Below, in pieces: positions 1 through 14,333 of a stretch of DNA of 64,000 nucleotides; position 1 is the first letter of the stretch; each line of letters opens with the position of its first letter. The notes under the pieces are model-generated. The model was given only the letters and a program-made list of their open reading frames with translations. It was not told where the DNA came from and did not search any database. The translations under genes were made by a program, and so were the position numbers. The stretch is from an uncultured Gemmatimonadota bacterium (lineage in GTDB: Bacteria > JAAXHH01): assembly GCA_951812955.1 (NCBI GenBank), contig OX638340.1, positions 2,720,001 to 2,784,000 of the forward strand, written 5' to 3'.

Positions 1-401
1 GGACGGCCGACCTGCACTCCTACATGGACCACCTGTACAAGTGGGACATGAACCTCGGCTTGATCGCTTTCGGCGCCGATTTCCTCGACCCGCGCAACAT
101 GCTGGACATGATATGGCACTCCCAGCCCCAGGGTCATGGGCGGCAGGACTGGCACAATCCCGGCTTCGACCGCCTTGTGGACTCGGCGGCCGCGGAACTG
201 AACCAGGAAACACGGTACAGCCTGTACCGGGAAGCCTCGGCCGTCATGGCGGCGGACTATCCCGCCGCCTTCCTCTATCACGGGATGGGCCTGCAGCTCC
301 GGAAACCCTGGCTTAAAGGCTATGCCGTAAACGAAGACGGCACCGTGGGTTCCTTCCGCTGGCACAAGCTGTACATCGCCGAGGTGGACGATGGGGAGTA
401 G
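1..401 (+). CDS. C-terminal fragment of an extracellular solute-binding protein (ABC transporter, family 5 peptide/nickel-type SBP). The 5' end is outside the window.
   Basis: The frame is open from the window edge and the ORF track begins at the first ATG (24). The C-terminal composition (WHSQPQG..., YLYHGMGLQLRKPWLKGY) is typical of family-5 SBP C-termini. Stop at 399-401. Confidence 0.45.
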   Translation, partial: TADLHSYMDHLYKWDMNLGLIAFGADFLDPRNMLDMIWHSQPQGHGRQDWHNPGFDRLVDSAAAELNQETRYSLYREASAVMAADYPAAFLYHGMGLQLRKPWLKGYAVNEDGTVGSFRWHKLYIAEVDDGE

Positions 402-1347
402 GGATATTCTTCGGGGTGAGTGGGGACTCCGGGGTGAACGGAGACTGTCCGCTCTCATTTTCCTTCTCACGCCGCTCCTCCTGGGCGCCTCGGCCCTGTT
501 CTGGATTCCCGGGGCGGCAGTGGCGCAGGAAAGTCCGGTCATCCTCGAAGCGATCAGCGTCCTCCCCGTGGAAGGTCCCGAATCCAACCAGCCATCGGGA
601 CTCTTCGTCCATCAAGACACCCTGTTTACCGTTTCCGACAAGCACGACGATACCATCTTCAGGATTGAACTTCGGGAGGATGCCGCGGTTTTCGTGCCAC
701 ACGTCCGTTTCGACCCACCCAGACCCTTCGGTGTGTTCAGGCTGGACCTGGAAGGCATCACCCGCGATGAGGACGGAAGTTTCTATCTCGTCAGCGAAGG
801 GGCCTTCGCCATTCTGAAGGTCGACGCGGACTCGAAAAAGGCATCCTGGGTCACCACGAACCTACGGGACGTGGGCGCTTCGGCGGGGCTCTTCCAGACC
901 CGCGGCGGTTATCTCGAGGGGATCACGCTGATGGCCAAAGACCGGTTTCTGGTCACCGCCGAACGGCAGCCCTGCGGCCTGATCGAAGTCGACATGGCCC
1001 CCGTGCAAAGGGTCGTGGAGATCGCTAATCATGGATCGACGAACAGTTACACGGGTCTGCACCGGGAGGTCGAAAACGTATACATTCTGCAGCGGAGCAC
1101 CGCGACCATCCGGAAGACCATCCGGTACCTGGACGTGGACAGTCCCTCGGCGATCTGGTCCTTCGCCCATATCGTCAACGACCCGGAATATCTCTATCAG
1201 CACGAACAATTCGGCGCGAAAACGGCAGAGGGACTCGCCATGGACCGCGACCGGGTCTACGTCATCCTCGATAACAACAATGACGCGCGCAGGATGTATC
1301 CCACCGATCACAGGCCCTTGCTCCTGATCATGAAGCGGCCCGACTGA
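391..1347 (+). CDS. Secreted hypothetical protein, possibly a beta-propeller of the SdiA-regulated/phytase-like type.
   Basis: 318-aa ORF with an N-terminal hydrophobic signal-like segment (LIFLLTPLLLGASALFWIPGAAVAQE). Protein-like composition. Family assignment is by resemblance only. Confidence 0.5.
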   Translation: MGSRDILRGEWGLRGERRLSALIFLLTPLLLGASALFWIPGAAVAQESPVILEAISVLPVEGPESNQPSGLFVHQDTLFTVSDKHDDTIFRIELREDAAVFVPHVRFDPPRPFGVFRLDLEGITRDEDGSFYLVSEGAFAILKVDADSKKASWVTTNLRDVGASAGLFQTRGGYLEGITLMAKDRFLVTAERQPCGLIEVDMAPVQRVVEIANHGSTNSYTGLHREVENVYILQRSTATIRKTIRYLDVDSPSAIWSFAHIVNDPEYLYQHEQFGAKTAEGLAMDRDRVYVILDNNNDARRMYPTDHRPLLLIMKRPD

Positions 1348-1357
1348 CGCGCTCCGC

Positions 1358-1425
1358 GGCATGAAACGGCCGGCCACCAGTGCCGCGTATTGAGAAGCGA
1401 CCCGGCTGAAACGGCCGGCCACCAG
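1358..1425. repeat. 25-bp near-perfect direct repeat (gaaacggccggccaccagYgccgcg) present twice, each copy embedded in a short hairpin (cgcggca ... tgccgcg).
   Basis: Read directly in the intergenic region between the 391..1347 ORF and the kinase gene. One mismatch between copies. Confidence 0.6.
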
Positions 1426-1491
1426 CGCCGCGGATCACGAAGCGGCCCCTTTGACGGAACGCCGGATCGTACCCGGCCGGGACAGGCGACC

Positions 1492-2970
1492 ATGATTCCA
1501 GATGCCCGGGACAGGCTGGCACGACTCTTCCGAAACACATTCGGCCATGCACCGGCGCACATCGCCACCCTGGGCGCGGACGGATCGATACGGCGGTACT
1601 TCCGGCTGCAGGGCGAAGATCAAACCGTCATCGGCGCAGCCAACAACGACCGGCGCGAGAACACCGCCTTCCTTTTCCTGTCCCGCCACTTCCGTCGCCA
1701 CGGACTGCCGGTACCCGAGATATACGCCCAGGATCTGGACCAGGGCGTCTACCTGCAGCAGGACCTGGGCGACGAGACGCTGTTCAGCCGGTTGGCCGCC
1801 GCCCGCGCGGAGGAGGGGACGTTTCCGGAACGGTTGGCCGCCGCCCGCGCGGAGGAGGGGACGTTTCCGGAACGGTTGGCGGCGATATACCGGCGGGTTC
1901 TCGACGACCTGCCCCGTTTCCAGGTCACCGCGGCGGAGAATCTGGACTTCTCGGTCTGCTACCCAAGGAGCCGTTTTGACGGGCAATCCATCCAGTGGGA
2001 CCTGAACTACTTCAAGTACCACTTCCTGAAGCTCGTGCCTGTCGACTTTGACGAGCAGGCCCTTGAAAACGATTTCGAACGATTCACGGCGTACCTCTTG
2101 GAAGCCGATACCCGATACTTCCTGTACCGGGATTTCCAGTCCCGGAATATCATGCTGCACGATGGCCGGCCGCATTACATAGACTACCAGGGCGGGCGGC
2201 AGGGCGCCCTTCAGTACGACATCGCGTCGCTCCTTCAGGACGGCAGGGCCGACATCCCGTGGGCAACGCGGGACGAACTCCTGGATTATTATGTCGAGAA
2301 AATCGGAGCGTACGCGGCTGTTTCAAGAGCATCGTTTCTGTCCCACTACTACGGCTACGCCCTGGTCCGTCTCATGCAGGCGCTGGGCGCCTACGGGTAC
2401 CGCGGGCTGTACGAAGGCAAGTCCCACTTCCTGACCAGTATCTCCCATGGCGTTCGTAACCTCGAGGGTCTGTTGGTGCGGGCCGCCCTGCCGGACGACC
2501 TGCCTGAACTGACCCGGGCCTGGTCGCGGATCGTCGACGATCCTGCGCTTCGGCGAATGGGAGCGGTTTCCGGAGAAGGGCTGACCGTCCACCTCTGGAG
2601 TTTTTCCTATCACCTCGGCCTGCCCCGGGACCCGAGCGGAAACGGCGGGGGTTTCATCTTCGACTGCCGGATCGTGAAGAACCCCGGGCGTATTCCCGAA
2701 TACGCGGCCCTGACGGGGAAGGACGCACCGGTGGCCGTATTCCTGGACAAAAATGAGGATGCGCGGACCTTCCTGGGGGATGCGAAGACCATGGTCGACC
2801 GGGCGGTAGAACACCACCTGCGGCGCGGGTTCACCGACCTGACCGTCGCCTTCGGTTGTACCGGCGGCCAGCACCGTTCGGTATACTTCGCAGAGCGCCT
2901 GGCGGCGCACCTGTCGGAGCGTCCGGGCCTGACGGTCCGGCTGAGGCACCGGGAGCAGGAGGATTCGTGA
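1492..2970 (+). CDS. Fusion protein: APH-fold (aminoglycoside phosphotransferase-like, AmgK-like anomeric sugar kinase) N-terminal domain fused to a RapZ/YhbJ C-terminal domain.
   Basis: N-terminal part has the Brenner-type catalytic motif YRDFQSRNIMLH...IDYQG of the APH/choline-kinase fold. The last ~150 aa align with the E. coli RapZ C-terminal domain (FIFDCRIVKNPGRIP...VAVFLDKNEDARTFL...LTVAFGCTGGQHRSVYFAERLAAHL versus FVFDVRFLPNPHWDP...VAAFLDRHTEVHNFI...[25 protein letters not shown]). ORF track begins at a TTG (1390); the likely ATG start is 1492, just before MIPDARDRL. Confidence 0.7.
   Translation: MIPDARDRLARLFRNTFGHAPAHIATLGADGSIRRYFRLQGEDQTVIGAANNDRRENTAFLFLSRHFRRHGLPVPEIYAQDLDQGVYLQQDLGDETLFSRLAAARAEEGTFPERLAAARAEEGTFPERLAAIYRRVLDDLPRFQVTAAENLDFSVCYPRSRFDGQSIQWDLNYFKYHFLKLVPVDFDEQALENDFERFTAYLLEADTRYFLYRDFQSRNIMLHDGRPHYIDYQGGRQGALQYDIASLLQDGRADIPWATRDELLDYYVEKIGAYAAVSRASFLSHYYGYALVRLMQALGAYGYRGLYEGKSHFLTSISHGVRNLEGLLVRAALPDDLPELTRAWSRIVDDPALRRMGAVSGEGLTVHLWSFSYHLGLPRDPSGNGGGFIFDCRIVKNPGRIPEYAALTGKDAPVAVFLDKNEDARTFLGDAKTMVDRAVEHHLRRGFTDLTVAFGCTGGQHRSVYFAERLAAHLSERPGLTVRLRHREQEDS
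1790..1873 (+). repeat. Perfect 42-bp tandem duplication inside the kinase gene, encoding RLAAARAEEGTFPE twice in frame.
   Basis: cggttggccgccgcccgcgcggaggaggggacgtttccggaa occurs at 1790-1831 and again at 1832-1873. Confidence 0.9.
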
Positions 2971-2975
2971 AGGCC

Positions 2976-3728
2976 ATGATCCTCGCCGCGGGACTGGGTA
3001 CCCGGTTGCGGCCCCTCACTGACACCCGGCCTAAAGCCCTCGTGCCGGTGGCCGGCAGACCCATGATTCACTGGGTGATCGCGCGACTCGCCAGTCACGG
3101 CTTCACGGACATCATCATCAATGCCCATCATTTCGCGGCGCAGATCGAGACCTTCGCGGCCGCGTACAAAGGTCCGGGCTCCCCACTGACTGTTTCCGTA
3201 GAGGAGGAGATCCTGGACACGGGCGGCGGGGTGCGGAAGGCCGCGTGGTTCTTCGACCGCGAGGAGCCGTTCCTGGTGCACAACGTGGACGTGCTGACCG
3301 ACCTGGATCTATCCGGCCTGATGAACGCTCACCTGGCTTCGGATGCCCATTCGGCCTATGGGGCCCTGGTCACCTTGGCCGTGAAGAGTAGAAAAAGTTC
3401 GCGTCACCTCCTGTTCGATGAGGCGGGACGGCTGGGCGGCTGGCGTTCGGACGTTACGGGAGAGACGCGCACGGTCCGGCCGATAGCGGGTCCCGTCACC
3501 CCCGTGCCCTTCATGGGCGTCTACGTCATGTCCCCTGCCGTGTTGAGAAAGATGGCCGATCCCGGTCCCTTTTCGATCATCGACTTCTTCCTGGACCAGG
3601 CAGGTGGCGGCGCGCCGATTCGGGCCTATCGGGCTGATGATGCCAGGTGGGCGGATCTCGGAAGCGAGGACCGCATCGCGGCGGCCGAGCGGCTCTTCGG
3701 TACGGACTGGTTCGCGGAGATCGGTTAA
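2976..3728 (+). CDS. murU: Sugar-phosphate nucleotidyltransferase, MurU-like (N-acetylmuramate 1-phosphate uridylyltransferase candidate).
   Basis: N-terminal MILAAGLGTRLRPLTDTRPKALVPVAGRPMIHW is the G-x-G-T-R-L nucleotidyltransferase signature. The ATG at 2976 follows the kinase stop (2968-2970) by 5 nt. Pairing with an APH-fold kinase matches the AmgK-MurU salvage arrangement. The symbol is by context and is tentative. Confidence 0.6.
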   Translation: MILAAGLGTRLRPLTDTRPKALVPVAGRPMIHWVIARLASHGFTDIIINAHHFAAQIETFAAAYKGPGSPLTVSVEEEILDTGGGVRKAAWFFDREEPFLVHNVDVLTDLDLSGLMNAHLASDAHSAYGALVTLAVKSRKSSRHLLFDEAGRLGGWRSDVTGETRTVRPIAGPVTPVPFMGVYVMSPAVLRKMADPGPFSIIDFFLDQAGGGAPIRAYRADDARWADLGSEDRIAAAERLFGTDWFAEIG

Positions 3729-4330
3729 TCCGTTCTCCAGACGAACACATACACGCAAAGGCCAGGCTTACCCGCCATCGGTCGAAATGACTTGAAGCGC
3801 AGCGCGCCAACGGTTATCTTGGTACCGTATCGATCTTCCTATAAACACGCCCTCACCCGAAGGAGGTTTGAATTGGCTGACGCATCGTCCTCCCGCGGCG
3901 CGAGGCAGTGTCTGCGTAGTCTGCTCTATCGCGGTTGTTGCCCCCGCCGAAGTTTTACTCCTACATAACCGGCGACAGCGGGCAAATACGCGGTGAAGAC
4001 GTTTCCTTCAGGATTCGCGCTCGTTGAGCGTCTCCGGTAATCCTCGCGGAACGGTTTCTCCTCCATTATGGCCCGGACGGTCATCTTGTTCGTACCGCCC
4101 GGGGCGATGGCAACTCGTGGATATACGGAATTCCCTGCCCGAAGCCAGGCGGGAATCCTGTCCTGTAGCAGCCTTTCTCCTGCCCCGCGCGGATCGTGCA
4201 TCTATTGATCCGAGCCACGACCCGTCGCTACACGATAGCGAGTCGAGCTGCGAGAAGCGTGCAGAGCGTGTTCAATTTTCAGTGCGCAGGATATCCGCGC
4301 CGGCTCTCCGAAATCAGTAAGGTAGGTACT

Positions 4331-5722
4331 ATGTCCGGCAGAATGAATGGAAGCCCCCCCAAATTCCAGATTTACGATCTCAGGAACTACAGAAAAATAC
4401 CCCAGATTGAGCATCTCCGGGACGAGCTGAAATTCGAAATGGAAGTCGTCGCGCAGGTTCTACCGTTCCGGACCAATTCCCACGTGGTGGAGAACCTGAT
4501 CCAATGGGAGAACATCCCCGACGACCCCATGTTCCAGCTCACTTTTCCGCAGCGGGAGATGCTGTCGCCGGACCACTTCGACGCGGTGGCTGCATTGGTG
4601 AAAAAGCAGGCGGGCAAAGCGGAAATGGCGCGCACGGTGAACCGGATCCGATGGGATCTGAATCCACAGCCCGCGGGCCAACTCGAGCACAATGTCCCCA
4701 GGGAGGACAACGAGAGACTGGATGGCATGCAGCACAAGTACCGGGAGACGGTACTGTTCTTTCCATCCCAGGGACAGACCTGCCACGCATACTGCACCTT
4801 CTGCTTCCGCTGGCCCCAGTTCGTGGGGATCGATGAGCTGAAGTTCGCCAGCCGCGAGGTCGAAAGTCTCATCAGATATCTTGAGGAAAATCCCCAGGTC
4901 ACCGACGTACTTTTCACGGGCGGCGATCCCATGGTCATGCGAGCAAAGAACCTTAGCGTGTATGTCGATGCGTTGCTGAAGGCGGACCTCCCCAATCTGC
5001 ACACGATCCGAATCGGGACGAAATCGCTGGCGTACTGGCCCTACAAGTACCTTACTGACCCGGACGCGGACGACGTGCTGGCGCTCTTCGAACGGGTAAT
5101 TCGCGCCGGTAAGCACCTGGCCATCATGGCCCATTGCAGCCATCCCGCCGAACTGCAACCCGACGCGGTGGCAAAAGCGGTCGGCCGGATCCGTGGTACG
5201 GGGGCAAGAGTTTACACGCAGTCTCCCATTCTGAGGCATATCAACGACGATCCGAACACCTGGGCCGCCATGTGGCGCAAGCAGGTGGACCTGGGGATGG
5301 TTCCCTATTACATGTTCGTGGTGCGAGACACCGGCGTGCAGCGCTTCTTCGCCGTGCCGCTGGTTCGCGCGTGGGAGATCTTCCAGAACGCCTATCAGCA
5401 GGTAAGTGGGATATGCCGGACCGTGCGCGGCCCCAGCATGTCGGCCCATCCCGGGAAGATCCATGTCCTGGGCGTCAGCGAGGTCCGCGGAGAGAAGATC
5501 ATCGCCCTGCAATTCCTGCAGGGACGCAATCCCGACTGGGTCCTGCGGCCGTTCTTCGCCCGGTACGACGAAAGAGCCATCTGGCTGGACGACCTCGAGC
5601 CGGCCTTTGGCGAGGAGTCGTTTTTCTTCGAAGAAGAGTTGGCGCAGTTGTGCGCTGAGGACCTGCCCTCCGGCCAGTGGGACGTGATGGAGTCCCTGGT
5701 GCTGGAAGGCGTGGAGTTTTAG
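4331..5722 (+). CDS. KamA-family radical SAM aminomutase (lysine 2,3-aminomutase-like).
   Basis: CHAYCTFCFRW is the CxxxCxxC radical SAM motif in the KamA-type context (GQTCHAYC...). TGGDPMVM matches the KamA family. The ATG at 4331 is preceded by aaggtagg. Upstream in-frame ORF sequence from 4196 looks non-coding. Confidence 0.75.
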   Translation: MSGRMNGSPPKFQIYDLRNYRKIPQIEHLRDELKFEMEVVAQVLPFRTNSHVVENLIQWENIPDDPMFQLTFPQREMLSPDHFDAVAALVKKQAGKAEMARTVNRIRWDLNPQPAGQLEHNVPREDNERLDGMQHKYRETVLFFPSQGQTCHAYCTFCFRWPQFVGIDELKFASREVESLIRYLEENPQVTDVLFTGGDPMVMRAKNLSVYVDALLKADLPNLHTIRIGTKSLAYWPYKYLTDPDADDVLALFERVIRAGKHLAIMAHCSHPAELQPDAVAKAVGRIRGTGARVYTQSPILRHINDDPNTWAAMWRKQVDLGMVPYYMFVVRDTGVQRFFAVPLVRAWEIFQNAYQQVSGICRTVRGPSMSAHPGKIHVLGVSEVRGEKIIALQFLQGRNPDWVLRPFFARYDERAIWLDDLEPAFGEESFFFEEELAQLCAEDLPSGQWDVMESLVLEGVEF

Positions 5723-5875
5723 TGAACGGGGCAGGGGTCAGGGTACGGTACTTGATGACCTCCCTGGGATCAGCGTTTTTCGGCCACAGCCTCAGCCAGC
5801 TGTTCTTTAGCCCACTGATTAACACTCACGCCGCCCACCTCGGCCGCCTCGGCTACCGCTGCGTGGGTTTCCGGA

Positions 5876-7402
5876 TCAATCCCCCAGCCCCGCATACCGG
5901 CAGACAATCTCCACGGCCTTGACCAGGGTCTTCGCGCCGAGTACGGCGTATTCCTCGATCAGGTTGCCTTCCTGGTCGAGCGTACCCAGGCCGGGACCGA
6001 GGAACATCTTCCCGCTGTAAATCGTGGCCGGTTCGACGCCCATGTGCTCCTGGGCGAGGACGATGGGATTGGTGTTGGCCCACAGGTCTTCCAGGTTGAA
6101 GATCGGGATGCCGAAGGCGCCGTCTTTCCACGTGCGTTCGTAGTTGAGCTCGGTGCCGCCGAGCTGGTAGGTTTTCGTGAAGATCAGGTCGTCGCGGAAT
6201 CGGGAGGGTTCCATCCGGGCGAATTCCTCTACGATGATTTCGTGGAACCGGTCCACGGGATCGGTGACCAGGCGGGGACGGTCGCGGAGGACCTTCAGGT
6301 AAGCGGTCAGACCGACCAGGGTGTCCCGGCCGGGATCACTGAAGGTATAGACCGCCTTGCCGTGGGAGGACAGCTCGCCGTACCGCTGGCCGCCCAGGCC
6401 CATGCCCTTGCGGATCGGGTTTATGACCTCTTCGCGGCCAATCAGCAACCCCGACGCAGGCGCACGGCCCGGCTTGTCCATGCTGTAGGTGATGATGTCG
6501 CAGCCGATGTCCCGGGGATCCATGCCGACGATGGGAATCGATCCTCCCGTGTCCACGATGTAGGGCACGTCGTAGTCCCGGGCCACGTCGGCGAGTTTCT
6601 TCAGGAGGATCGGCGCGCCGTTCTCGTCCTGTTCGCCGAGTCCGTAGCTGGGTGTGTCGTATCCCACCGTGGCGATGCCCGTGAGCAGGGAAGCGTTCCG
6701 TTCGGCGGCCTTCTTCACGTTTCCGATGGTGCCGTCCACGTCCACCCCGGTGAGCAACGAGGTGGGATTATACCGGATGCCGTGCGGATCGTATTTCGCG
6801 CCGGCCATGGGTACGTAGAGCGTCTCGAGGTTCGCCAGGCTCTTGTTCTCGATGCCCAGTTCGCCGCCGGCGATAGTCCGGTCCACGAGAAGGTTCTTGT
6901 ACCGCGGCGGGAAGGCCCGGCCGTAGCCGCCGATCCATTCGTAGTCCTCGCCGTAAGGCATGAGCAGGCGGCCGCGGTAGATGTCGCCGTGGCGCATGGA
7001 GGGCGGAGCGCAAAGCGTCTCCAGGGTCAGGCGCAGCAGCGATTCGCAGGTGTTGGCGGCCACCGCGTCGAACTCATCGCCGTAGACGTCCTTGACGACT
7101 TCCCGCAGTTCGTCTTCGACCACCCGCACCGGGTAGGTCTTGCCGCCCCGGTTGGCTTCCACAATCGCGTCGAGAACGTAATCGGGGAGGTTGCCTGGTC
7201 TCGCCGAACTGCCGGCGTACAGGCCGATGTCCTGCCGTAGCTTCAGCGTGCCGATCTCTTCGCCGTATATCCGGGCCTCTTCGGCGATTTTACCCAAATT
7301 GTCGTAGATTGACTGGTACCACTGGAACTTGTACATGGCTGTTCTTTCTCGGATCCGCACTGCGTTGGACGAGACGGGAAGATCGTCTACGGGCGGTTTC
7401 AC
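5876..7402 (-). CDS. PLP-dependent enzyme of the SelA-like fold-type I family; function unknown.
   Basis: Long ORF with protein-like composition. YSMDKPGRAPASGLLIG resembles the SelA family S-G-D-K PLP-lysine loop. An alternative ATG start lies at 7336 (MYKFQWY). The opposite-strand ORF 6044..7240 has antisense-type composition. Confidence 0.5.
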   Translation of the reverse strand: MKPPVDDLPVSSNAVRIRERTAMYKFQWYQSIYDNLGKIAEEARIYGEEIGTLKLRQDIGLYAGSSARPGNLPDYVLDAIVEANRGGKTYPVRVVEDELREVVKDVYGDEFDAVAANTCESLLRLTLETLCAPPSMRHGDIYRGRLLMPYGEDYEWIGGYGRAFPPRYKNLLVDRTIAGGELGIENKSLANLETLYVPMAGAKYDPHGIRYNPTSLLTGVDVDGTIGNVKKAAERNASLLTGIATVGYDTPSYGLGEQDENGAPILLKKLADVARDYDVPYIVDTGGSIPIVGMDPRDIGCDIITYSMDKPGRAPASGLLIGREEVINPIRKGMGLGGQRYGELSSHGKAVYTFSDPGRDTLVGLTAYLKVLRDRPRLVTDPVDRFHEIIVEEFARMEPSRFRDDLIFTKTYQLGGTELNYERTWKDGAFGIPIFNLEDLWANTNPIVLAQEHMGVEPATIYSGKMFLGPGLGTLDQEGNLIEEYAVLGAKTLVKAVEIVCRYAGLGD

Positions 7403-7420
7403 GCCGGACCGTCGTGGGGA

Positions 7421-8575
7421 TCAGGGTATGCTGGAAATCACTTCGAGGGCCCGTTCCACGTCGGACACCCGGTTGTACAAGTGGGGCGAGAATCGGATCA
7501 CGTCGCCGCGCAACGCGACCATGACGCCGGACTGCTTCAGATGCTTCGCCACGCTGGAGATGTCGTGGCCGGGAAAACGGGCGGTAACAATGGCCGAGCG
7601 TTCGGCGGCGTTCCGGGGGGAAGTGACCTCGGCGCCGATATCCGCCAGGCCGCTGATGAGGTGGTCGGCGAGGACCTGGTTATGGGCGAAGATCTCGTCG
7701 ATACCCGTGTCCACGAGGAATCCGATCGACTTCGCGAACCCGCCGGCCAACCCATAGGCCATGGTGCTGAACTCGAACCGGGACGCGTCCTCCGGGTAAT
7801 CCGGCGGATCGGTGCTGATGTCCCAGATGTCGACCTGGCTCCGAAAGCCCACCAGGCCGGGTTCGAGGCTCGTGGCGAGATGCGGAGCGAGGTACATGAC
7901 GGCGATACCGAAAGGACCGCACAGCCACTTGTATGCTCCGGCGGCAACGGCGTCGATGCCCATGCCGGGTGCGTCGATGGGGACGGCGCCCGCGGACTGC
8001 GTGGCGTCCACGACGAGCAGGGCTCCGTGCCGGTGCGCGATCTCGGCAAAAGCGGCGAGGTCCCAGCGCTGGCCGCTGCGGAATTCGACGTGGGACAGGG
8101 CCACTACGGCCGTGTTGTCGTCAATGAGGTCCCGGACGCGGCCGGGATCGACAGTACCTCCCCCCCGCGCGTGCGCCAGCCGGATCTCACAGCCCGTGTG
8201 GTTGGCGACCCGTCTCCAGGGGTAGACCGAAGCGGGGAAGGATACGTCCGTGCTGACGACGTTGGTTTCCGGTCCGGGCATGACCGCCCAGGCGAGGGAA
8301 CTCAGGAGCTCGGTGGTGCTGGACCCGGCGGCGATGTCGGTCGGCGACGCGTTGAAGAGCCGGGCGGCCTGCCGGTGCAACTCATCGAATACCGTGGCTT
8401 CGGCTTCTTCGTCGAAGTGGTTGCTGCCGTTCTCGGCGACGTCCCGGTACCATTCGGTGATCGCGGACGCGGCCGGACGGTACATGGGCGTTACGTTCGC
8501 CGCGTTGATGTAGGTGCAGGTCTGTGCTACGGGAAACTCATCGACCGGAACCAGCGGATCGAGGGACTGTGGCAT
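7421..8575 (-). CDS. Class V aminotransferase/desulfurase-family PLP enzyme.
   Basis: AGAYKWLCGPFGIAVMY places the PLP lysine in class-V context. Length is 384 aa. The large plus-strand ORF 7481..9835 has antisense composition. Confidence 0.75.
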   Translation of the reverse strand: MPQSLDPLVPVDEFPVAQTCTYINAANVTPMYRPAASAITEWYRDVAENGSNHFDEEAEATVFDELHRQAARLFNASPTDIAAGSSTTELLSSLAWAVMPGPETNVVSTDVSFPASVYPWRRVANHTGCEIRLAHARGGGTVDPGRVRDLIDDNTAVVALSHVEFRSGQRWDLAAFAEIAHRHGALLVVDATQSAGAVPIDAPGMGIDAVAAGAYKWLCGPFGIAVMYLAPHLATSLEPGLVGFRSQVDIWDISTDPPDYPEDASRFEFSTMAYGLAGGFAKSIGFLVDTGIDEIFAHNQVLADHLISGLADIGAEVTSPRNAAERSAIVTARFPGHDISSVAKHLKQSGVMVALRGDVIRFSPHLYNRVSDVERALEVISSIP

Positions 8576-8593
8576 GGTAAGGCCTCCCGGCGA

Positions 8594-9772
8594 TCAACCG
8601 GCGGCCGCGTCGCGCTCGTTCACTGTTCCCGCGTCCTCTTCCTCGGCGACCTGGCGGAGCAGGCTGGCAATCCGGCGCAGTCCCTCGTTCAGGTAGTCGG
8701 ACGGCAGGCCGTAGCTGATGCGGAGATGGTTAGGTATGCCGAAGTAGTCCCCTGGACCGATGAGCACCGACTTCTCCTGGATCAGTCGATTCGCCAGTGT
8801 CGCGGAATCGGCCTTCAGGTTGTACCGGACGAAGGAAACGGCCGTTGCCTGGGGCGGAACGAGACTCAGGATGTCCGAGTTGTCGCTGATCCAGCCGTGG
8901 TAGTTCTCCCATCCCCGCCGGATATAGCCCCGCGTCCTTTCGAAGATGGCCTGCCGCACGTCCGGGCGCAGCGCCAGCGGCGCGAGGAAATGGTTGGACA
9001 ACTTGGCGGTGCTCAAAGTCAGGTACTCGTGGCGCTTCCAAAGCTCCCTGAGCAGGTCTTCAGGACCCACGAGCCAGCCGATCCGCAGGCCGGGCATGCC
9101 GAAGGACTTGGACATGCTGCCCGCCGCGATGACCCGGTCGTACCGACCGTAGAAGGTGGGCGAAACCTCCTCCCGCTCCCGCTCGGACCCGGCGTAGATC
9201 TCGTCGGCGAGCAGGTAGGCGCCGCTGCGTTCGGCCGCGCGGACGACGGCGTCCATTTCGGATTCCGTCAGGATCTGCCCCGTCGGGTTGTTTGGGTTGC
9301 AGATGGAGATCAGTTTCGTTTCGTCAGATACGGCGGACTCCAGGCTGTCGGTATCGAGCGCCCATCCCCGGTCGGGATCGAGGGTGAACGTCCGGCGGAT
9401 GGCGCCCATGTTGTGCGCGAGCCCCCAACTCTGGAGGTAGCATGGCACCTGGACCGCCACCTCGCCCCCGCCTTCCAGCAGCGTCTGGAACGTGATGTAA
9501 TTGGCCTCGATGCATCCGATGGTCACCAGTACGTTATCGGCCGTGGCGCCGGGGTAGTACTGGGCAATGGCCTCCCGCAGTTCAGGCGAACCGTTGGCGT
9601 ATCCGTAGCCCAGTTCGGTATCCAGCATGCGGTCCAGGATATCGGGATCGTGGGCGATCAGTTCCCTGACCTTGACCGGGTGCGCGCCGCTCTCGGACAG
9701 GTTGTATTCCACGACCTGTTCCCAGTCCGACATGATGCGTTCCAGGTCAAAAGTCTGGAAGGTCGATGCCAT
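8594..9772 (-). CDS. Class I/II aminotransferase.
   Basis: SMSKSFGMPGLRIGW is the class-I aminotransferase PLP-lysine motif. ICNPNNPTG is the typical NPTG box. Confidence 0.8.
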   Translation of the reverse strand: MASTFQTFDLERIMSDWEQVVEYNLSESGAHPVKVRELIAHDPDILDRMLDTELGYGYANGSPELREAIAQYYPGATADNVLVTIGCIEANYITFQTLLEGGGEVAVQVPCYLQSWGLAHNMGAIRRTFTLDPDRGWALDTDSLESAVSDETKLISICNPNNPTGQILTESEMDAVVRAAERSGAYLLADEIYAGSEREREEVSPTFYGRYDRVIAAGSMSKSFGMPGLRIGWLVGPEDLLRELWKRHEYLTLSTAKLSNHFLAPLALRPDVRQAIFERTRGYIRRGWENYHGWISDNSDILSLVPPQATAVSFVRYNLKADSATLANRLIQEKSVLIGPGDYFGIPNHLRISYGLPSDYLNEGLRRIASLLRQVAEEEDAGTVNERDAAAG

Positions 9773-9927
9773 GTGCTTGCTCCTTGGTTTGATGGGCCGT
9801 CAGTGTTCGGTGCGCCGGCCATGTCGGCCTGCTAATCCGGTCAGCCTGGTCAGTGTGGCCGGCCAAGTCAGCCTGGCCGGCCGTGTCAGCCCGCCAGTCC
9901 GGCCGCTCGGTCATTCCGTCCGTCTGT

Positions 9928-10875
9928 CTACTTTACGGCGTGGTATACGGCCTTGGATATCTGGATATCCTGTACGGCGACGCCCGTCGAATCGGCGATC
10001 GTGATCTGGTCGTCGGAAGTGCGGCCGAGGGAAGGATTCTGAATCACGTTCCCGAGCTCGACCACCTTGTCCTCGGTTATGGCGCCCGCCATCATCGCCT
10101 GGGCGATCTCGCCCCGCAACCTGCACTGGGGGATGCTGTCCGCCACGACCACGTCGGCCTTTACGAGCACGCCTGGATCCAACTCGATCTTGTCCGGCGT
10201 ATCCGATCCCATGGCGGTGATGTGGGTCCCGGGCCGGACCTGCTCGGCGGTCAGCAGCGGCGACAGGGACGGGGTGGACATGATGATGAGATTGCTTGTC
10301 GCCGCCACCGCGCCGGCGTCATCCGTTGTCTCGACGGAGTATCCCTGGGCTTCCATGTCACGCATGTAGGACGCCTTGCTCTCGTCGGAACGTCCCCACG
10401 CGATCACGTCCGTGCAGTCGACGACACCCTTCAGGTACTCAACCTGCATGCGTGCCTGCAGGCCCGTACCGAAAACGCCGATGCGGCTGACGTTCTTCGG
10501 CGCGAGGACCTTGGCCACGACTGGCCCCATGGCGGCCGTACGTACGTTGGTGAGGTAGCCCTGGTCGAGCAGGAACGCCACCGGCTGGCCCGTTCTCTGA
10601 TTGAAGACCAGCATCATGCCCTGGACGCGGGGGAGGCCCACGTTCGGATTATCGCTGAAACCGGAGGCCAGCTTGATAACGTAATAGTCATCGTTGTTGA
10701 TCGCGCCGTACTTGATATGCACGTTCCCTGGAGGATCCTCGAAGTGCATCTCGCCGACGGGCGGCACCTGCACATTTCCCTGCGAATATGCGACGAAACC
10801 GTCCTCTATATCCTGAATGACGTCAATGCCCTCTACGGCTTCCTTGATTCGGTCCAGTTCGACGATGAGCGGCAT
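9928..10875 (-). CDS. Ornithine cyclodeaminase/mu-crystallin family NAD-dependent enzyme.
   Basis: 315 aa. The Rossmann segment IGVFGTGLQARMQVEYL and overall OCD-family layout are present. Co-directional with the upstream aminotransferases. Confidence 0.75.
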   Translation of the reverse strand: MPLIVELDRIKEAVEGIDVIQDIEDGFVAYSQGNVQVPPVGEMHFEDPPGNVHIKYGAINNDDYYVIKLASGFSDNPNVGLPRVQGMMLVFNQRTGQPVAFLLDQGYLTNVRTAAMGPVVAKVLAPKNVSRIGVFGTGLQARMQVEYLKGVVDCTDVIAWGRSDESKASYMRDMEAQGYSVETTDDAGAVAATSNLIIMSTPSLSPLLTAEQVRPGTHITAMGSDTPDKIELDPGVLVKADVVVADSIPQCRLRGEIAQAMMAGAITEDKVVELGNVIQNPSLGRTSDDQITIADSTGVAVQDIQISKAVYHAVK

Positions 10876-11113: not shown

Positions 11114-11157
11114 GGAGTCTTCCCTACATGCCGGCAGGTCCCAGGAGGAGTACTTAC

Positions 11158-12258
<1,101 letters not shown>

Positions 12259-12403: not shown

Positions 12404-13348
12404 TCAGCCCAGGTGGGCGCGTTTGGCGAGGAAGGTCAACAGGGCCTGGTCGAAGGGCGTGCCCGTATCCAGGCTGAGATAGTCCGCCGCGTTTTCCCGA
12501 CAGACACGGGTATAAACTTCGTCCTGCTTCTCCAGGTCGCCCAGGTACGCTTCGCGGATCGCATGCGGGTGGGTATATACTTCTTCACCGGTTTCCATGT
12601 CGCGGAAGCGGGCGGGCTGCCGGAATGTAAAGTCCTTCTCGGCGGGATCAAGGAGGCGAAATACGATCACTTCATGCTTCCGATGGCGAAAATGCCGGAT
12701 GCTGTCGACGATGTCCCCGGGTTCGTCGAACAAATCGGAAATGACGATGATCAACCCGCGCCGCTTGATCCGTTCCGCCAGCGAGTGAAAGGTCGCCCGG
12801 CTTCGTGTTCCGGACCCGGGCACCGCGGCTTGCAGCCGCTGCAGAATGACGTGCAGATGATTGCGGACCGACCGCGGTGGCACGTATTGCCTTATCTGCT
12901 CGTCGTACAGCACCAGGCCCACCGAGTCCTGCTGGCTCAGCATGAGGTAGGTGAGGGCGGCCGCCAGGTACCTGCCGTACTCCAGTTTGCTTATACCCGC
13001 GGATCCGTATTCCATCGACGCGCTGACGTCCAGGAAGATATAGGATTTCAGATTGGTTTCTTCTTCATATTCCTTGATATAATACCTGTCGGATTTAGCG
13101 AAGACCTTCCAGTCGATATGCTTGATCGGATCGCCCGGCATGTACTGCCTGTGTTCCGCGTATTCGACGCTGAACCCATGGTAGGGGCTGCTGTGCAGTC
13201 CGGCGATGAACCCTTCCACGACCAGTCGCGCCTTAAGGTCCAACCGGGCGAGCCGGGACACGGTCATCGGATCGAGGTATTTGCGGTAATCGGGCGTATT
13301 CATGGTTATTGGCAGGCGTGAAGAGGGATCAGGAGCCTGTCGTTTCAT
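12404..13348 (-). CDS. DUF58 (VWA-like) protein, partner of the MoxR ATPase.
   Basis: HIDWKVFAKSDRYYIKEYEEETN and LIIVISDLFD are DUF58 hallmarks. The gene lies immediately downstream of a MoxR gene. An alternative ATG start is at 13303. Confidence 0.7.
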   Translation of the reverse strand: MKRQAPDPSSRLPITMNTPDYRKYLDPMTVSRLARLDLKARLVVEGFIAGLHSSPYHGFSVEYAEHRQYMPGDPIKHIDWKVFAKSDRYYIKEYEEETNLKSYIFLDVSASMEYGSAGISKLEYGRYLAAALTYLMLSQQDSVGLVLYDEQIRQYVPPRSVRNHLHVILQRLQAAVPGSGTRSRATFHSLAERIKRRGLIIVISDLFDEPGDIVDSIRHFRHRKHEVIVFRLLDPAEKDFTFRQPARFRDMETGEEVYTHPHAIREAYLGDLEKQDEVYTRVCRENAADYLSLDTGTPFDQALLTFLAKRAHLG

Positions 13349-14333
13349 CCATCAGTTGCGTGATGATGTCGTCGGCGGAGACTCCGTCCGCGTCGGCGTT
13401 GAAATTGGTCACGATGCGGTGCCTGAGCACGGGCAGCGCCAGGGCGCGCACGTCTTCCGGAGTGGGCGTATAGTTTCCCATGAGCACCGCCCGGGCCTTC
13501 GCGCCGAGGATCAGGTACTGGGAGGCCCGGGGTCCGGCGCCCCAGCTGACCCGTTCGCGGATGAAAGGTGGCGCGTCCGTCTCGTTCGGACGGGTCATGC
13601 GGGCCAGCGAAACGGCGTACTCGACGACGTGGTCCGCCACGGGCACTCTTCGGATCAGCTGTTGCAGTTTATTCACGTCGTCCCCCGTCAGGATATGTTC
13701 CGGCACGGCCTCCTGAACGCTCGTCGTACTCCGGGCGATTTCGATTTCTTCGGTGCGGGACGGATAATCCATGTAGATACTGAACATGAAACGGTCCAAT
13801 TGGGCCTCGGGCAGGGGATAGGTTCCTTCCTGCTCGATGGGGTTTTGGGTCGCCAGGACGAAAAACGGCTCGTCGAGCCGCATGGATTCCCCCGCGGCAG
13901 TCACTTCGTGTTCCTGCATCGCCTGCAATAGGGCCGCCTGCGTCTTGGGCGGCGTGCGGTTTACCTCGTCCGCCAGAATCACGTTCGCGAAAATCGGCCC
14001 GCGGATAAACTTGAACTCCCGGTGACCGGTCGACCGATCCTCTTCCAGGATTTCCGTTCCCGTGATGTCGGACGGCATCAGGTCCGGCGTGAACTGAATG
14101 CGGCTGAACTTGAGATCGAGCGTCCTGGAAAGCGTGTTGATCAGGAGCGTCTTGGCCAGTCCCGGAACGCCGATCAGCAGTGCGTGGCCGTTTGCCAGTA
14201 GGACGGTCAGGAGCTGCTGTACCACCTCCTGCTGACCGATGATGACCTTGGATATTTCAGCCCTTATGCGATCTCCCGCCTCCTGTAATTCCTCGACGAT
14301 TTCCAGATCGCCGTGCCGCTGTTCGTCTGCCAT
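13329..14333 (-). CDS. MoxR-family AAA+ ATPase.
   Basis: Walker A GVPGLAKT, ILADEVNRTPPKTQAALLQAMQE and FFVLATQNP are MoxR signatures. Confidence 0.85.
   Translation of the reverse strand: MADEQRHGDLEIVEELQEAGDRIRAEISKVIIGQQEVVQQLLTVLLANGHALLIGVPGLAKTLLINTLSRTLDLKFSRIQFTPDLMPSDITGTEILEEDRSTGHREFKFIRGPIFANVILADEVNRTPPKTQAALLQAMQEHEVTAAGESMRLDEPFFVLATQNPIEQEGTYPLPEAQLDRFMFSIYMDYPSRTEEIEIARSTTSVQEAVPEHILTGDDVNKLQQLIRRVPVADHVVEYAVSLARMTRPNETDAPPFIRERVSWGAGPRASQYLILGAKARAVLMGNYTPTPEDVRALALPVLRHRIVTNFNADADGVSADDIITQLMDETTGS

Follow-up and report, generated by a model that had tools for sequence, protein, structure and literature searches.

A conserved four-gene amino-acid operon and a KamA-like radical SAM gene, probably separate units, at one locus of an uncultured Gemmatimonadota bacterium

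The DNA analysed here, referred to throughout as the window, is a stretch of 64,000 nucleotides from an uncultured Gemmatimonadota bacterium (assembly GCA_951812955.1, contig OX638340.1, positions 2,720,001 to 2,784,000). In a region of about 62% G+C the plus strand of the window carries a gene for a KamA-family protein of the pyridoxal phosphate (PLP)/radical S-adenosylmethionine (SAM) type. Converging on it from the minus strand are four genes, which encode an enzyme of the ornithine cyclodeaminase/mu-crystallin family (OCD), a class I aminotransferase-fold enzyme (ATI), a class V PLP enzyme (ATV) and a PLP protein called PLP508. An earlier note, made from the letters alone, had placed all five genes in one candidate pathway for an unusual amino acid. 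Gene calls based on an open reading frame (ORF) listing and on profile searches of the window proteins (Pfam, NCBIfam) find the genes where that note put them (Table 1), and its family labels (KamA-type radical SAM, SelA-like PLP, class V, class I, OCD and ABC ATPase) are broadly right. The single pathway is what fails. The locus is read here as two independent units, a four-gene operon and a KamA-like gene with a leader of its own, and this joint explanation, including the functions proposed below for each, is considered probable.

Table 1. Features of the region, with positions counted from the first letter of the window
Feature	Position	Strand	Basis
Phytase-like protein	391-1347	+	Profile search
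AmgK-like (APH-type) kinase fused to RapZ C-terminal domain (PF22740)	1390-2970	+	Profile search
MurU-like nucleotidyltransferase	2856-3728	+	Profile search
Leader of KamA-like gene, 602 bp	3729-4330	+	Gap between nucleotidyltransferase gene and KamA-like gene
Small ORF, 31 codons, TTG start	3873-3968	+	Conserved in relatives; AAGGAGG at 3860-3866
KamA-family PLP/radical-SAM protein, 463 residues	4331-5722	+	TIGR00238 118 bits (cutoff 199 not reached)
hicB antitoxin remnant, C-terminal ~37 codons	5770-5880	-	Comparison with full HicB of L003
PLP508, 486 residues	5876-7336 (ORF extends to 7402)	-	No Pfam match; 24 bits to DgaE/SelA-related model
Class V PLP enzyme (ATV)	7421-8575	-	Aminotran_5 162 bits
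Class I aminotransferase-fold enzyme (ATI)	8594-9772	-	Aminotran_1_2 160 bits; best PRK07324, then GntC, VioD, all below cutoff
OCD/mu-crystallin NAD(P) enzyme (OCD)	9928-10875	-	PF02423 209 bits; PRK06823 406 bits (cutoff 438)
UgpC/MalK-type ABC ATPase, solitary	11128-12258	+	PRK11650 487 bits (above cutoff 432)
DUF58/VWA gene and MoxR-type AAA ATPase (Bat-like operon)	12404-14333	-	Beside ABC ATPase throughout clade

The division into two units is seen most directly in the synteny of relatives. A profile scan for PLP508, with one genome per species, returned 67 loci, all from metagenome-assembled genomes (MAGs), and no cultured host stands among these 67 species-level genomes; the window proteins were then compared with the loci by tblastn. 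A KamA profile scan of metagenomes returned 80 loci, in 76 of which the gene was called. (Individual loci are cited by number with the prefix L.) The window's own clade, defined by PLP508 identity of at least 90%, comprises 21 loci from sponge- or coral-associated "Gemmatimonadetes/Latescibacterota" MAGs. Outside this clade no KamA homologue was found by tblastn within 10 kb of PLP508 at any of about 45 diverse PLP508 loci, and neither PLP508 nor a window-type OCD stands beside the KamA homologue at any of the 76 KamA loci. KamA homologues with 65% identity (in Sulfuricella) and 73% identity (in a Gemmatimonadota MAG) lie in unrelated surroundings. Within the clade the block OCD-ATI-ATV-PLP508 is intact in every locus. 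KamA is present in 14 of the 21 (it is absent from six or seven), two of its copies look frameshifted, and its distance from PLP508 ranges from 52 to 5754 bp. In two long-read MAGs (L014:11969-13338 and L026:11542-12920) the KamA homologue appears as two overlapping tblastn segments, the product of either frameshift assembly errors or pseudogenes. The earlier note had itself held that a lack of synteny elsewhere would tell against its pathway; for KamA that synteny is lacking, and the four minus-strand genes do behave as a conserved module.

How the two units come to touch in the window is suggested by the 153 bp of their convergent junction, where a terminator scan found no intrinsic terminator. 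The hicB remnant that lies there reads IDPETHAAVAEAAEVGGVSVNQWAKEQLAEAVAEKR up to its stop codon, and its end meets the PLP508 stop codon exactly. A full HicB of 112 residues is encoded at L003:11440-11778 (its C-terminus reads IDPEIHAAVAEAAEVHGVSINQWAKEKLSEAAGERH up to the stop codon), and in a 92%-identical relative hicB, a gene for a 282-residue protein and a PIN toxin gene separate KamA from PLP508; such an insert is seen in L003/L004. Because the window retains a piece of hicB, and relatives retain the full islet of hicB, 282-residue gene and PIN gene, the junction is interpreted as the scar of a recent deletion of about 2 kb. In the window, KamA thus appears to have come into contact with the operon through the loss of a toxin-antitoxin islet. 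In L018 and L020 it is a nucleotidyltransferase gene that abuts PLP508 or lies at most 193 bp from it. The interval from the MurU-like gene to PLP508 is a hot spot at which genes are gained and lost. As judged from these sequence comparisons, the KamA-like gene appears to be a dispensable accessory gene in a variable islet.

The four minus-strand genes are a conserved amino-acid module, with PLP508 and the PRK06823-type OCD as its core. Their order is kept outside the clade in L029, L030 and L072, at 63-88% identity, and elsewhere the same components recur in other arrangements: PLP508-OCD-x-ATI in Asgard archaea (L055, L057, L058, L060), PLP508-permease-OCD-ATI in Aminicenantes (L070) and ATI-PLP508 in L032, L061 and L062. 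In L007 and L049 the order is PLP508-permease-Ldh_2-ATV-ATV, with an Ldh_2-family enzyme in place of OCD. ATV and an amino-acid ABC transporter stand beside PLP508 in L006, an unassigned metagenome contig, and in L035 and L075, both from Chloroflexota. Whole or in part, the operon is found in sponge-associated Gemmatimonadota-like MAGs, Chloroflexota, Aminicenantes, Alphaproteobacteria and Asgard/Bathyarchaeia archaea. In the Asgard archaea the OCD and the class I enzyme belong to the same subgroups as those of the window, with scores of 407 bits for PRK06823 and 314 bits for PRK07324, respectively.

OCD directly adjoins PLP508 in the Asgard loci and in L157-L159. The class I orthologue adjoins it in 12 diverse loci, Asgard archaea included, the class V enzyme co-occurs with it in 10, and an amino-acid permease or ABC transporter is the adjoining gene in about 18 loci. 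Peptidases are also recurrent neighbours, and RidA, an enamine/imine deaminase, adjoins PLP508 in L054 and L059 and lies close to it in L158. Viewed from the OCD side, PLP508 is the next gene downstream in three of the four contexts sampled; L158 and L159, which are among the three, are near-identical. In the fourth (L156, 7001-14954), where the orthologous OCD has 60% identity, a threonine-synthase-like PLP enzyme of fold type II occupies the position of PLP508 and may represent its non-orthologous displacement. The L156 operon also holds an amino-acid ABC transporter, a class I aminotransferase and an APH-type kinase. The L029/L030 operons (e.g., L030:4492-12817) are longer: a gene for a PhyH-family dioxygenase stands upstream of OCD, and PLP508 is followed downstream by one for a DRL/SAF-domain NAD oxidoreductase, which L072 has as well. 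A PhyH gene near L003 is not related to the one in these two operons and was rejected as a member.

The OCD of the window matches PF02423 over residues 10-314 (cutoff 24 bits), and PRK06823, the group it comes closest to, carries no functional assignment. Its scores for characterized members of the family remain below the respective cutoffs: 252 bits for EutC (cutoff 472), 157 for BhcD (cutoff 500), 126 for true ornithine cyclodeaminase (PRK07589, cutoff 350) and 97 for SbnB (cutoff 327). All four identities were rejected on these grounds. EutC is the third-best NCBIfam match, after two groups to which no function is attached. Further scores are 213 bits for archaeal alanine dehydrogenase (AlaDH), 149 bits for a model of delta-1-pyrroline-2-carboxylate/delta-1-piperideine-2-carboxylate (Pyr2C/Pip2C) reductase, and 69 bits for CmnK. 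The nearest solved relatives are the alanine dehydrogenase of A. fulgidus (1OMO) and, next, iminosuccinate reductase (6RQA). The OCD-family enzyme is likely to be the imine reductase or dehydrogenase of the module.

Of the two aminotransferase-fold enzymes, the class I protein is placed in the PRK07324 group (274 bits, cutoff 476), with GntC (254 bits, cutoff 415) and VioD (223 bits, cutoff 391) as its nearest named relatives, and its matches in the PDB are 3op7 and 8fft. A possible counterpart to the partner hydroxylase of GntC/VioD is the PhyH dioxygenase of the L029/L030 operons; the window operon has none. The class V enzyme carries a kynureninase-like C-terminal domain (34 bits to KYNU_C). 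It was rejected as a SufS/IscS cysteine desulfurase: its SufS score is 121 bits against a cutoff of 475, the PDB alignment to SufS stops at residue 351, and its only cysteines are at positions 20, 129 and 219, with none in the C-terminal region of the catalytic loop.

The true start of PLP508 is probably at 7336, which gives 486 residues and matches the lengths of its homologues. Its 597 close homologues are all unnamed, and a profile search run exhaustively over 1.84 billion representatives returned only 198 relatives and no bridge to a named family. Similarity to the DgaE/SelA-related model is confined to 65 residues around the PLP lysine, and membership in the SelA/DgaE family was rejected at 24 bits against a cutoff of 385. 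Distant members of the PLP508 family show at most marginal Aminotran_5 or SelA matches near the cofactor lysine (17 bits to the SelA Pfam model in one of them). Between Gemmatimonadota-like bacteria and Asgard archaea the identity of PLP508 is 54-60%. An 805-residue PLP508 fusion in L064 proved to be an ORF-calling artefact.

An AF2 model of PLP508 built with 13 sequences had a pLDDT of 55.6, which rose to 90.5 after distant representatives were added; the latter, confident model is of fold type I. The cofactor aspartate (D262) and a Ser-x-x-Lys motif with the PLP lysine (K288) are conserved. PLP508 thus shares with SelA, DgaE and SufS-like enzymes a fold and an Asp...Ser-x-x-Lys cofactor site, as well as weak matches around the lysine to the DgaE-family ammonia-lyase, SufS and SelA. 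It differs from them in its low structural identity (9-16%, TM ~0.5, with no subfamily standing out) and in about 160 extra residues. PLP508 is an orphan family of fold-type-I PLP enzymes, for which Pfam has no model. No characterisation of this family, or of the KamA-like clade considered next, was found in the literature.

The KamA-like protein belongs to a divergent, uncharacterised clade of the KamA family. The earlier note had called for it to be subtyped by profiles and had named EpmB as the identity that would make it a housekeeping enzyme. Its score for EpmB is 97 bits (cutoff 369), and it likewise falls below the equivalog cutoffs for AblA (TIGR03820, 96 bits, cutoff 525), the arginine enzyme (84 bits, cutoff 600) and the glutamate enzyme (TIGR04368, 71 bits, cutoff 650). 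Lysine 2,3-aminomutase (LAM, 2A5H) is its sole sequence match in the PDB. An alignment of 24 clade sequences with 2A5H shows that the CxxxCxxC motif of the [4Fe-4S] cluster (C151, C155, C158), the carboxylate-binding arginine R160 (R134 of LAM) and the PLP lysine K376 (K337 of LAM) are invariant, and all of these are features of lysine and glutamate 2,3-aminomutases. The residues at the specificity sites are different. The positions of LAM D293 and D330 are taken by R332 and S369, both invariant in the clade (the equivalences for K337 and D330 come from an ungapped extension of the alignment, in which the spacing from a conserved glycine is identical). The two aspartates bind lysine in LAM, and in glutamate 2,3-aminomutase lysine and asparagine stand at these sites (PMC3965090). 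The clade pair is therefore Arg/Ser, against Asp/Asp in the lysine enzyme and Lys/Asn in the glutamate enzyme, and its first residue is cationic, as in the latter. A further difference from both is a length of about 450 residues with a different C-terminal region. The clade is very large (more than 8000 clusters), its members are 60-75% identical across phyla, and they are usually labelled "lysine 2,3-aminomutase" by the sources; unannotated clusters have been noted in this subgroup in the SFLD paper (PMC3965090). The best reading of the active site is that of a PLP/radical-SAM 2,3-aminomutase that would act on a substrate other than lysine, and the protein may possibly work like glutamate 2,3-aminomutase.

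The neighbours of KamA homologues elsewhere point to osmotic stress. An MscS channel gene adjoins the homologue in 35 of the 76 loci; 29 of these share one recurrent gene order, the other six show at least three further arrangements, and Sulfuricella adds another. Glutamine synthetase is the neighbour in eight of the 76, and a class I aminotransferase (about 437 residues) in seven. A search of 43 KamA-homologue loci with Rfam found four, L085, L094, L105 and L132, in which a cyclic di-AMP (c-di-AMP) riboswitch (70-93 bits) immediately precedes the KamA-like gene. In L094 (296-3517) the genes that follow the riboswitch and the KamA-like gene encode a BrkB-like membrane protein and then a c-di-AMP receptor (PF06153, DarA-type). 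Both L085 and L094 contain a second c-di-AMP riboswitch in divergent orientation; the one in L085 (604-1005) precedes a class III aminotransferase gene. The known osmoprotectant genes ablA and eam are under Na+ or c-di-AMP riboswitches (PMC9337991), so that some clade members resemble them in this type of control. MscS channels are release valves for compatible solutes (PMC5924519), and in a halophilic methanogen glutamine synthetase amidates beta-glutamate to beta-glutamine (PMC1224877). Because of the Arg/Ser pair, the MscS and glutamine synthetase neighbours and the c-di-AMP riboswitches, the KamA-like enzyme most likely makes an osmoprotective beta-amino acid, i.e., a compatible solute. 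Its substrate is possibly acidic, and beta-glutamate would be the best guess for its product.

The 602-bp gap upstream of the KamA-like gene had been described in the earlier note as an untranslated leader of 600 bp. The gap is real; that it is untranslated finds no support, as a conserved ORF of 30 or 31 codons with a strong AAGGAGG lies inside it. In an alignment of the window with the corresponding region of 10 relatives, the nucleotide identity of the leader is 77-81% in the other relatives with KamA and reaches 97% in L010, which is near-identical to the window; loci that lack KamA lack the leader too. Since it is present with KamA and missing where KamA is missing, the leader travels with the gene. 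Candidate promoter hexamers TTGAAG (3792-3797) and TATCTT (3815-3820), 17 nt apart, are both invariant or nearly so in the alignment; the eight matches of 12 leave this candidate below the threshold of the promoter scan. The small ORF encodes a Cys/Arg-rich peptide, M-ADASSSRGARQCLRSLLYRGCCPRRSFTPT, and has a Shine-Dalgarno sequence and a GTG or TTG start in nine of the 10 relatives. A 3-nt indel within it keeps the frame, and in L025 its Shine-Dalgarno sequence and start are deleted. As its core is invariant at the nucleotide level among the relatives, constraint on the coding sequence and on the RNA look alike here.

A structured riboswitch in the leader of the window is not supported. Rfam 15 gave no match to 3700-4400 at the gathering threshold or at E<=1, the folding energy is not unusual compared with shuffled sequence (z = -0.34), and RNAalifold on the 10 relatives detects almost no covariation among sequences that are too close to judge by it. 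The leader is single-copy in the window and, together with the small ORF, was not found outside the close clade among the compared loci, which include the more distant KamA-homologue loci. The simplest reading is that of a regulatory 5' region. The leaders of several relatives (L003:9265-10010, L011, L014, L016 and L023; alignment columns ~540-680) contain a tandem repeat of about 20 nt (TATGGGTCCGA.GCCGCC-like) in variable copy number; the window has none.

The remaining genes of Table 1 flank the two units. The ABC ATPase, divergent from the operon, lies beside OCD only in the close clade and in L072, and the ORF listing of the window has no permease or binding-protein gene adjoining it; it is probably unrelated to the operon. 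On the other side, the AmgK-like kinase and the MurU-like gene downstream of it make up a putative pair for MurNAc recycling, in which the fusion of the kinase to a RapZ domain is unusual.

For the four-gene operon a two-enzyme core reaction can be outlined. PLP508 would act on an imported amino acid by elimination or related C-alpha chemistry to give a 2-imino or enamine acid, which the OCD-family enzyme would reduce to an amino acid, so that nitrogen is kept and an electron sink is provided; the two aminotransferase-fold enzymes would move amino groups into or out of the route. This order of elimination and then reduction is favoured because of the closest relatives of OCD, the RidA neighbours, the weak similarity of PLP508 to the DgaE-type ammonia-lyase and the catabolic neighbourhood. 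Both the Archaeoglobus alanine dehydrogenase and iminosuccinate reductase reduce acyclic 2-imino acids, and in EutB/EutC (utilisation of ectoine and hydroxyectoine), SbnA/SbnB and ALD1/SARD4 a PLP enzyme is likewise paired with an enzyme of the OCD/mu-crystallin family. The window OCD is below the EutC and SbnB cutoffs, and the PLP partners in these systems are of other folds or families. A close parallel is BhcA-D of the beta-hydroxyaspartate cycle, with an aspartate:glyoxylate aminotransferase, an aldolase, a PLP dehydratase and an iminosuccinate reductase. There too one operon joins a class V aminotransferase-fold enzyme and other PLP enzymes to a member of the OCD family that uses NAD(P)H, and the PLP step of BhcB gives a 2-imino acid that BhcD reduces (PMC8166194). 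The two systems differ in their parts: besides the low BhcD score of OCD, the BhcA score is 38 bits (cutoff 650), the candidate dehydratase PLP508 is of fold type I and BhcB of fold type II, no BhcC-type aldolase is encoded here, and amino-acid transporters are the usual neighbours of the PLP508 module. Taken in full, the proposal is that PLP508 and the PRK06823-type OCD form an undescribed two-enzyme route of elimination (or rearrangement) and NAD(P)H-dependent imine reduction, which would serve uncultured fermenters of peptides and amino acids as a nitrogen-conserving electron sink and would have spread, probably horizontally, among sponge symbionts, Chloroflexota, Aminicenantes and Asgard/Bathyarchaeia archaea; this is offered tentatively, as possible rather than probable.

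The main rival to this scheme starts from transamination. As in ALD1/SARD4 or the D-lysine route of Pseudomonas, a diamino acid such as ornithine or lysine would be transaminated, the 2-oxo acid would cyclise to Pyr2C or Pip2C, and OCD would reduce this to proline or pipecolate, with PLP508 as an accessory racemase or second transaminase. The two aminotransferase-fold genes of the operon fit this, as does the replacement of OCD in L007 and L049 by Ldh_2, the other known Pyr2C/Pip2C reductase family, beside a carbamate kinase and an OTCase fragment. OCD homologues are documented as Pyr2C reductases (PMC4141209, PMC3958920), and the window OCD does score with the Pyr2C/Pip2C model. That model and the LhpI model nevertheless score below AlaDH, EutC and BhcD, the conserved core of PLP508 and OCD often occurs without either aminotransferase, and the RidA neighbours point to acyclic enamines or imines, so that the cyclic route is rated rather unlikely. 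A chemistry of the SbnA/SbnB (CmnB/CmnK) kind is a good deal less credible still. Here the PLP enzyme would join an amine donor to an activated hydroxy-amino acid by condensation, and oxidative cleavage of the adduct by the OCD-like dehydrogenase would yield a diamino acid. The pairing of enzyme families is the same, CmnK is a detectable relative of OCD, the enzyme beside the orthologous OCD of L156 is of fold type II and its operon includes an APH-type kinase, and APH-like kinases are near the Asgard loci too. Set against this are the low SbnB and CmnK scores, the fold of PLP508, which is not that of SbnA, and the catabolic look of the transporter, peptidase and RidA neighbours.

The pathway of the earlier note, in which the aminomutase product (a beta-amino acid) would be tailored or cyclised by the three PLP enzymes and OCD, draws on the fact that all five genes encode amino-acid enzymes and are convergent at short distance in the window. 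It is very improbable in view of the mutual absence of KamA and PLP508 from each other's diverse loci, the loss or displacement of KamA within the clade, the hicB deletion scar, and the convergent transcription of KamA from a leader that travels with it. Least probable of all, to the point of being scarcely tenable, is a housekeeping or classical role for the KamA-like protein, as EpmB, as the LAM of lysine fermentation or as AblA. The names of its homologues and the status of LAM as the only solved relative would suggest this, but the models for EpmB, AblA and the arginine and glutamate enzymes are all far below cutoff, both lysine-binding aspartates are replaced (PMC3965090), and the gene is dispensable within the clade. 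Furthermore, kamDE, kdd, kce, kal, ablB, epmA and efp were not identified among the called or Pfam-scanned neighbours in the window and its relatives, in keeping with the earlier note, which had found no match to the canonical lysine-fermentation, ectoine or N-epsilon-acetyl-beta-lysine gene sets. Several observations weigh against the two-unit explanation and the functions attached to it. Three clade genomes (L010, L019, L023) have KamA about as near the operon as in the window, and a loose functional link between KamA and the operon may exist within this clade. PLP508 occurs in many loci, as in Aminicenantes, without OCD or an aminotransferase, and RidA adjoins it in few. The single gene order of 29 MscS loci leaves few independent observations, the riboswitch accompanies only four of 43 scanned KamA loci and is missing from the window, and early nuclear magnetic resonance work spoke against a glutamate aminomutase route in methanogens (PMC1224877).

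For genome mining, the locus illustrates how a deletion scar can yield a gene cluster that is convincing and yet spurious, and the KamA-like clade is a case of routine misnaming, as its members are called "lysine 2,3-aminomutase" without having the lysine-binding residues. The MscS, glutamine synthetase and c-di-AMP links of that clade predict a widespread and testable pathway to a beta-amino-acid osmolyte. The locus may well encode an amino-acid route not yet described, as the earlier note had proposed. If the elimination and reduction scheme is true, PLP508 would be a new reaction-specific family of PLP enzymes; its tight coupling to one OCD subgroup makes the two a concrete, testable enzyme pair for an amino-acid step in uncultured lineages.

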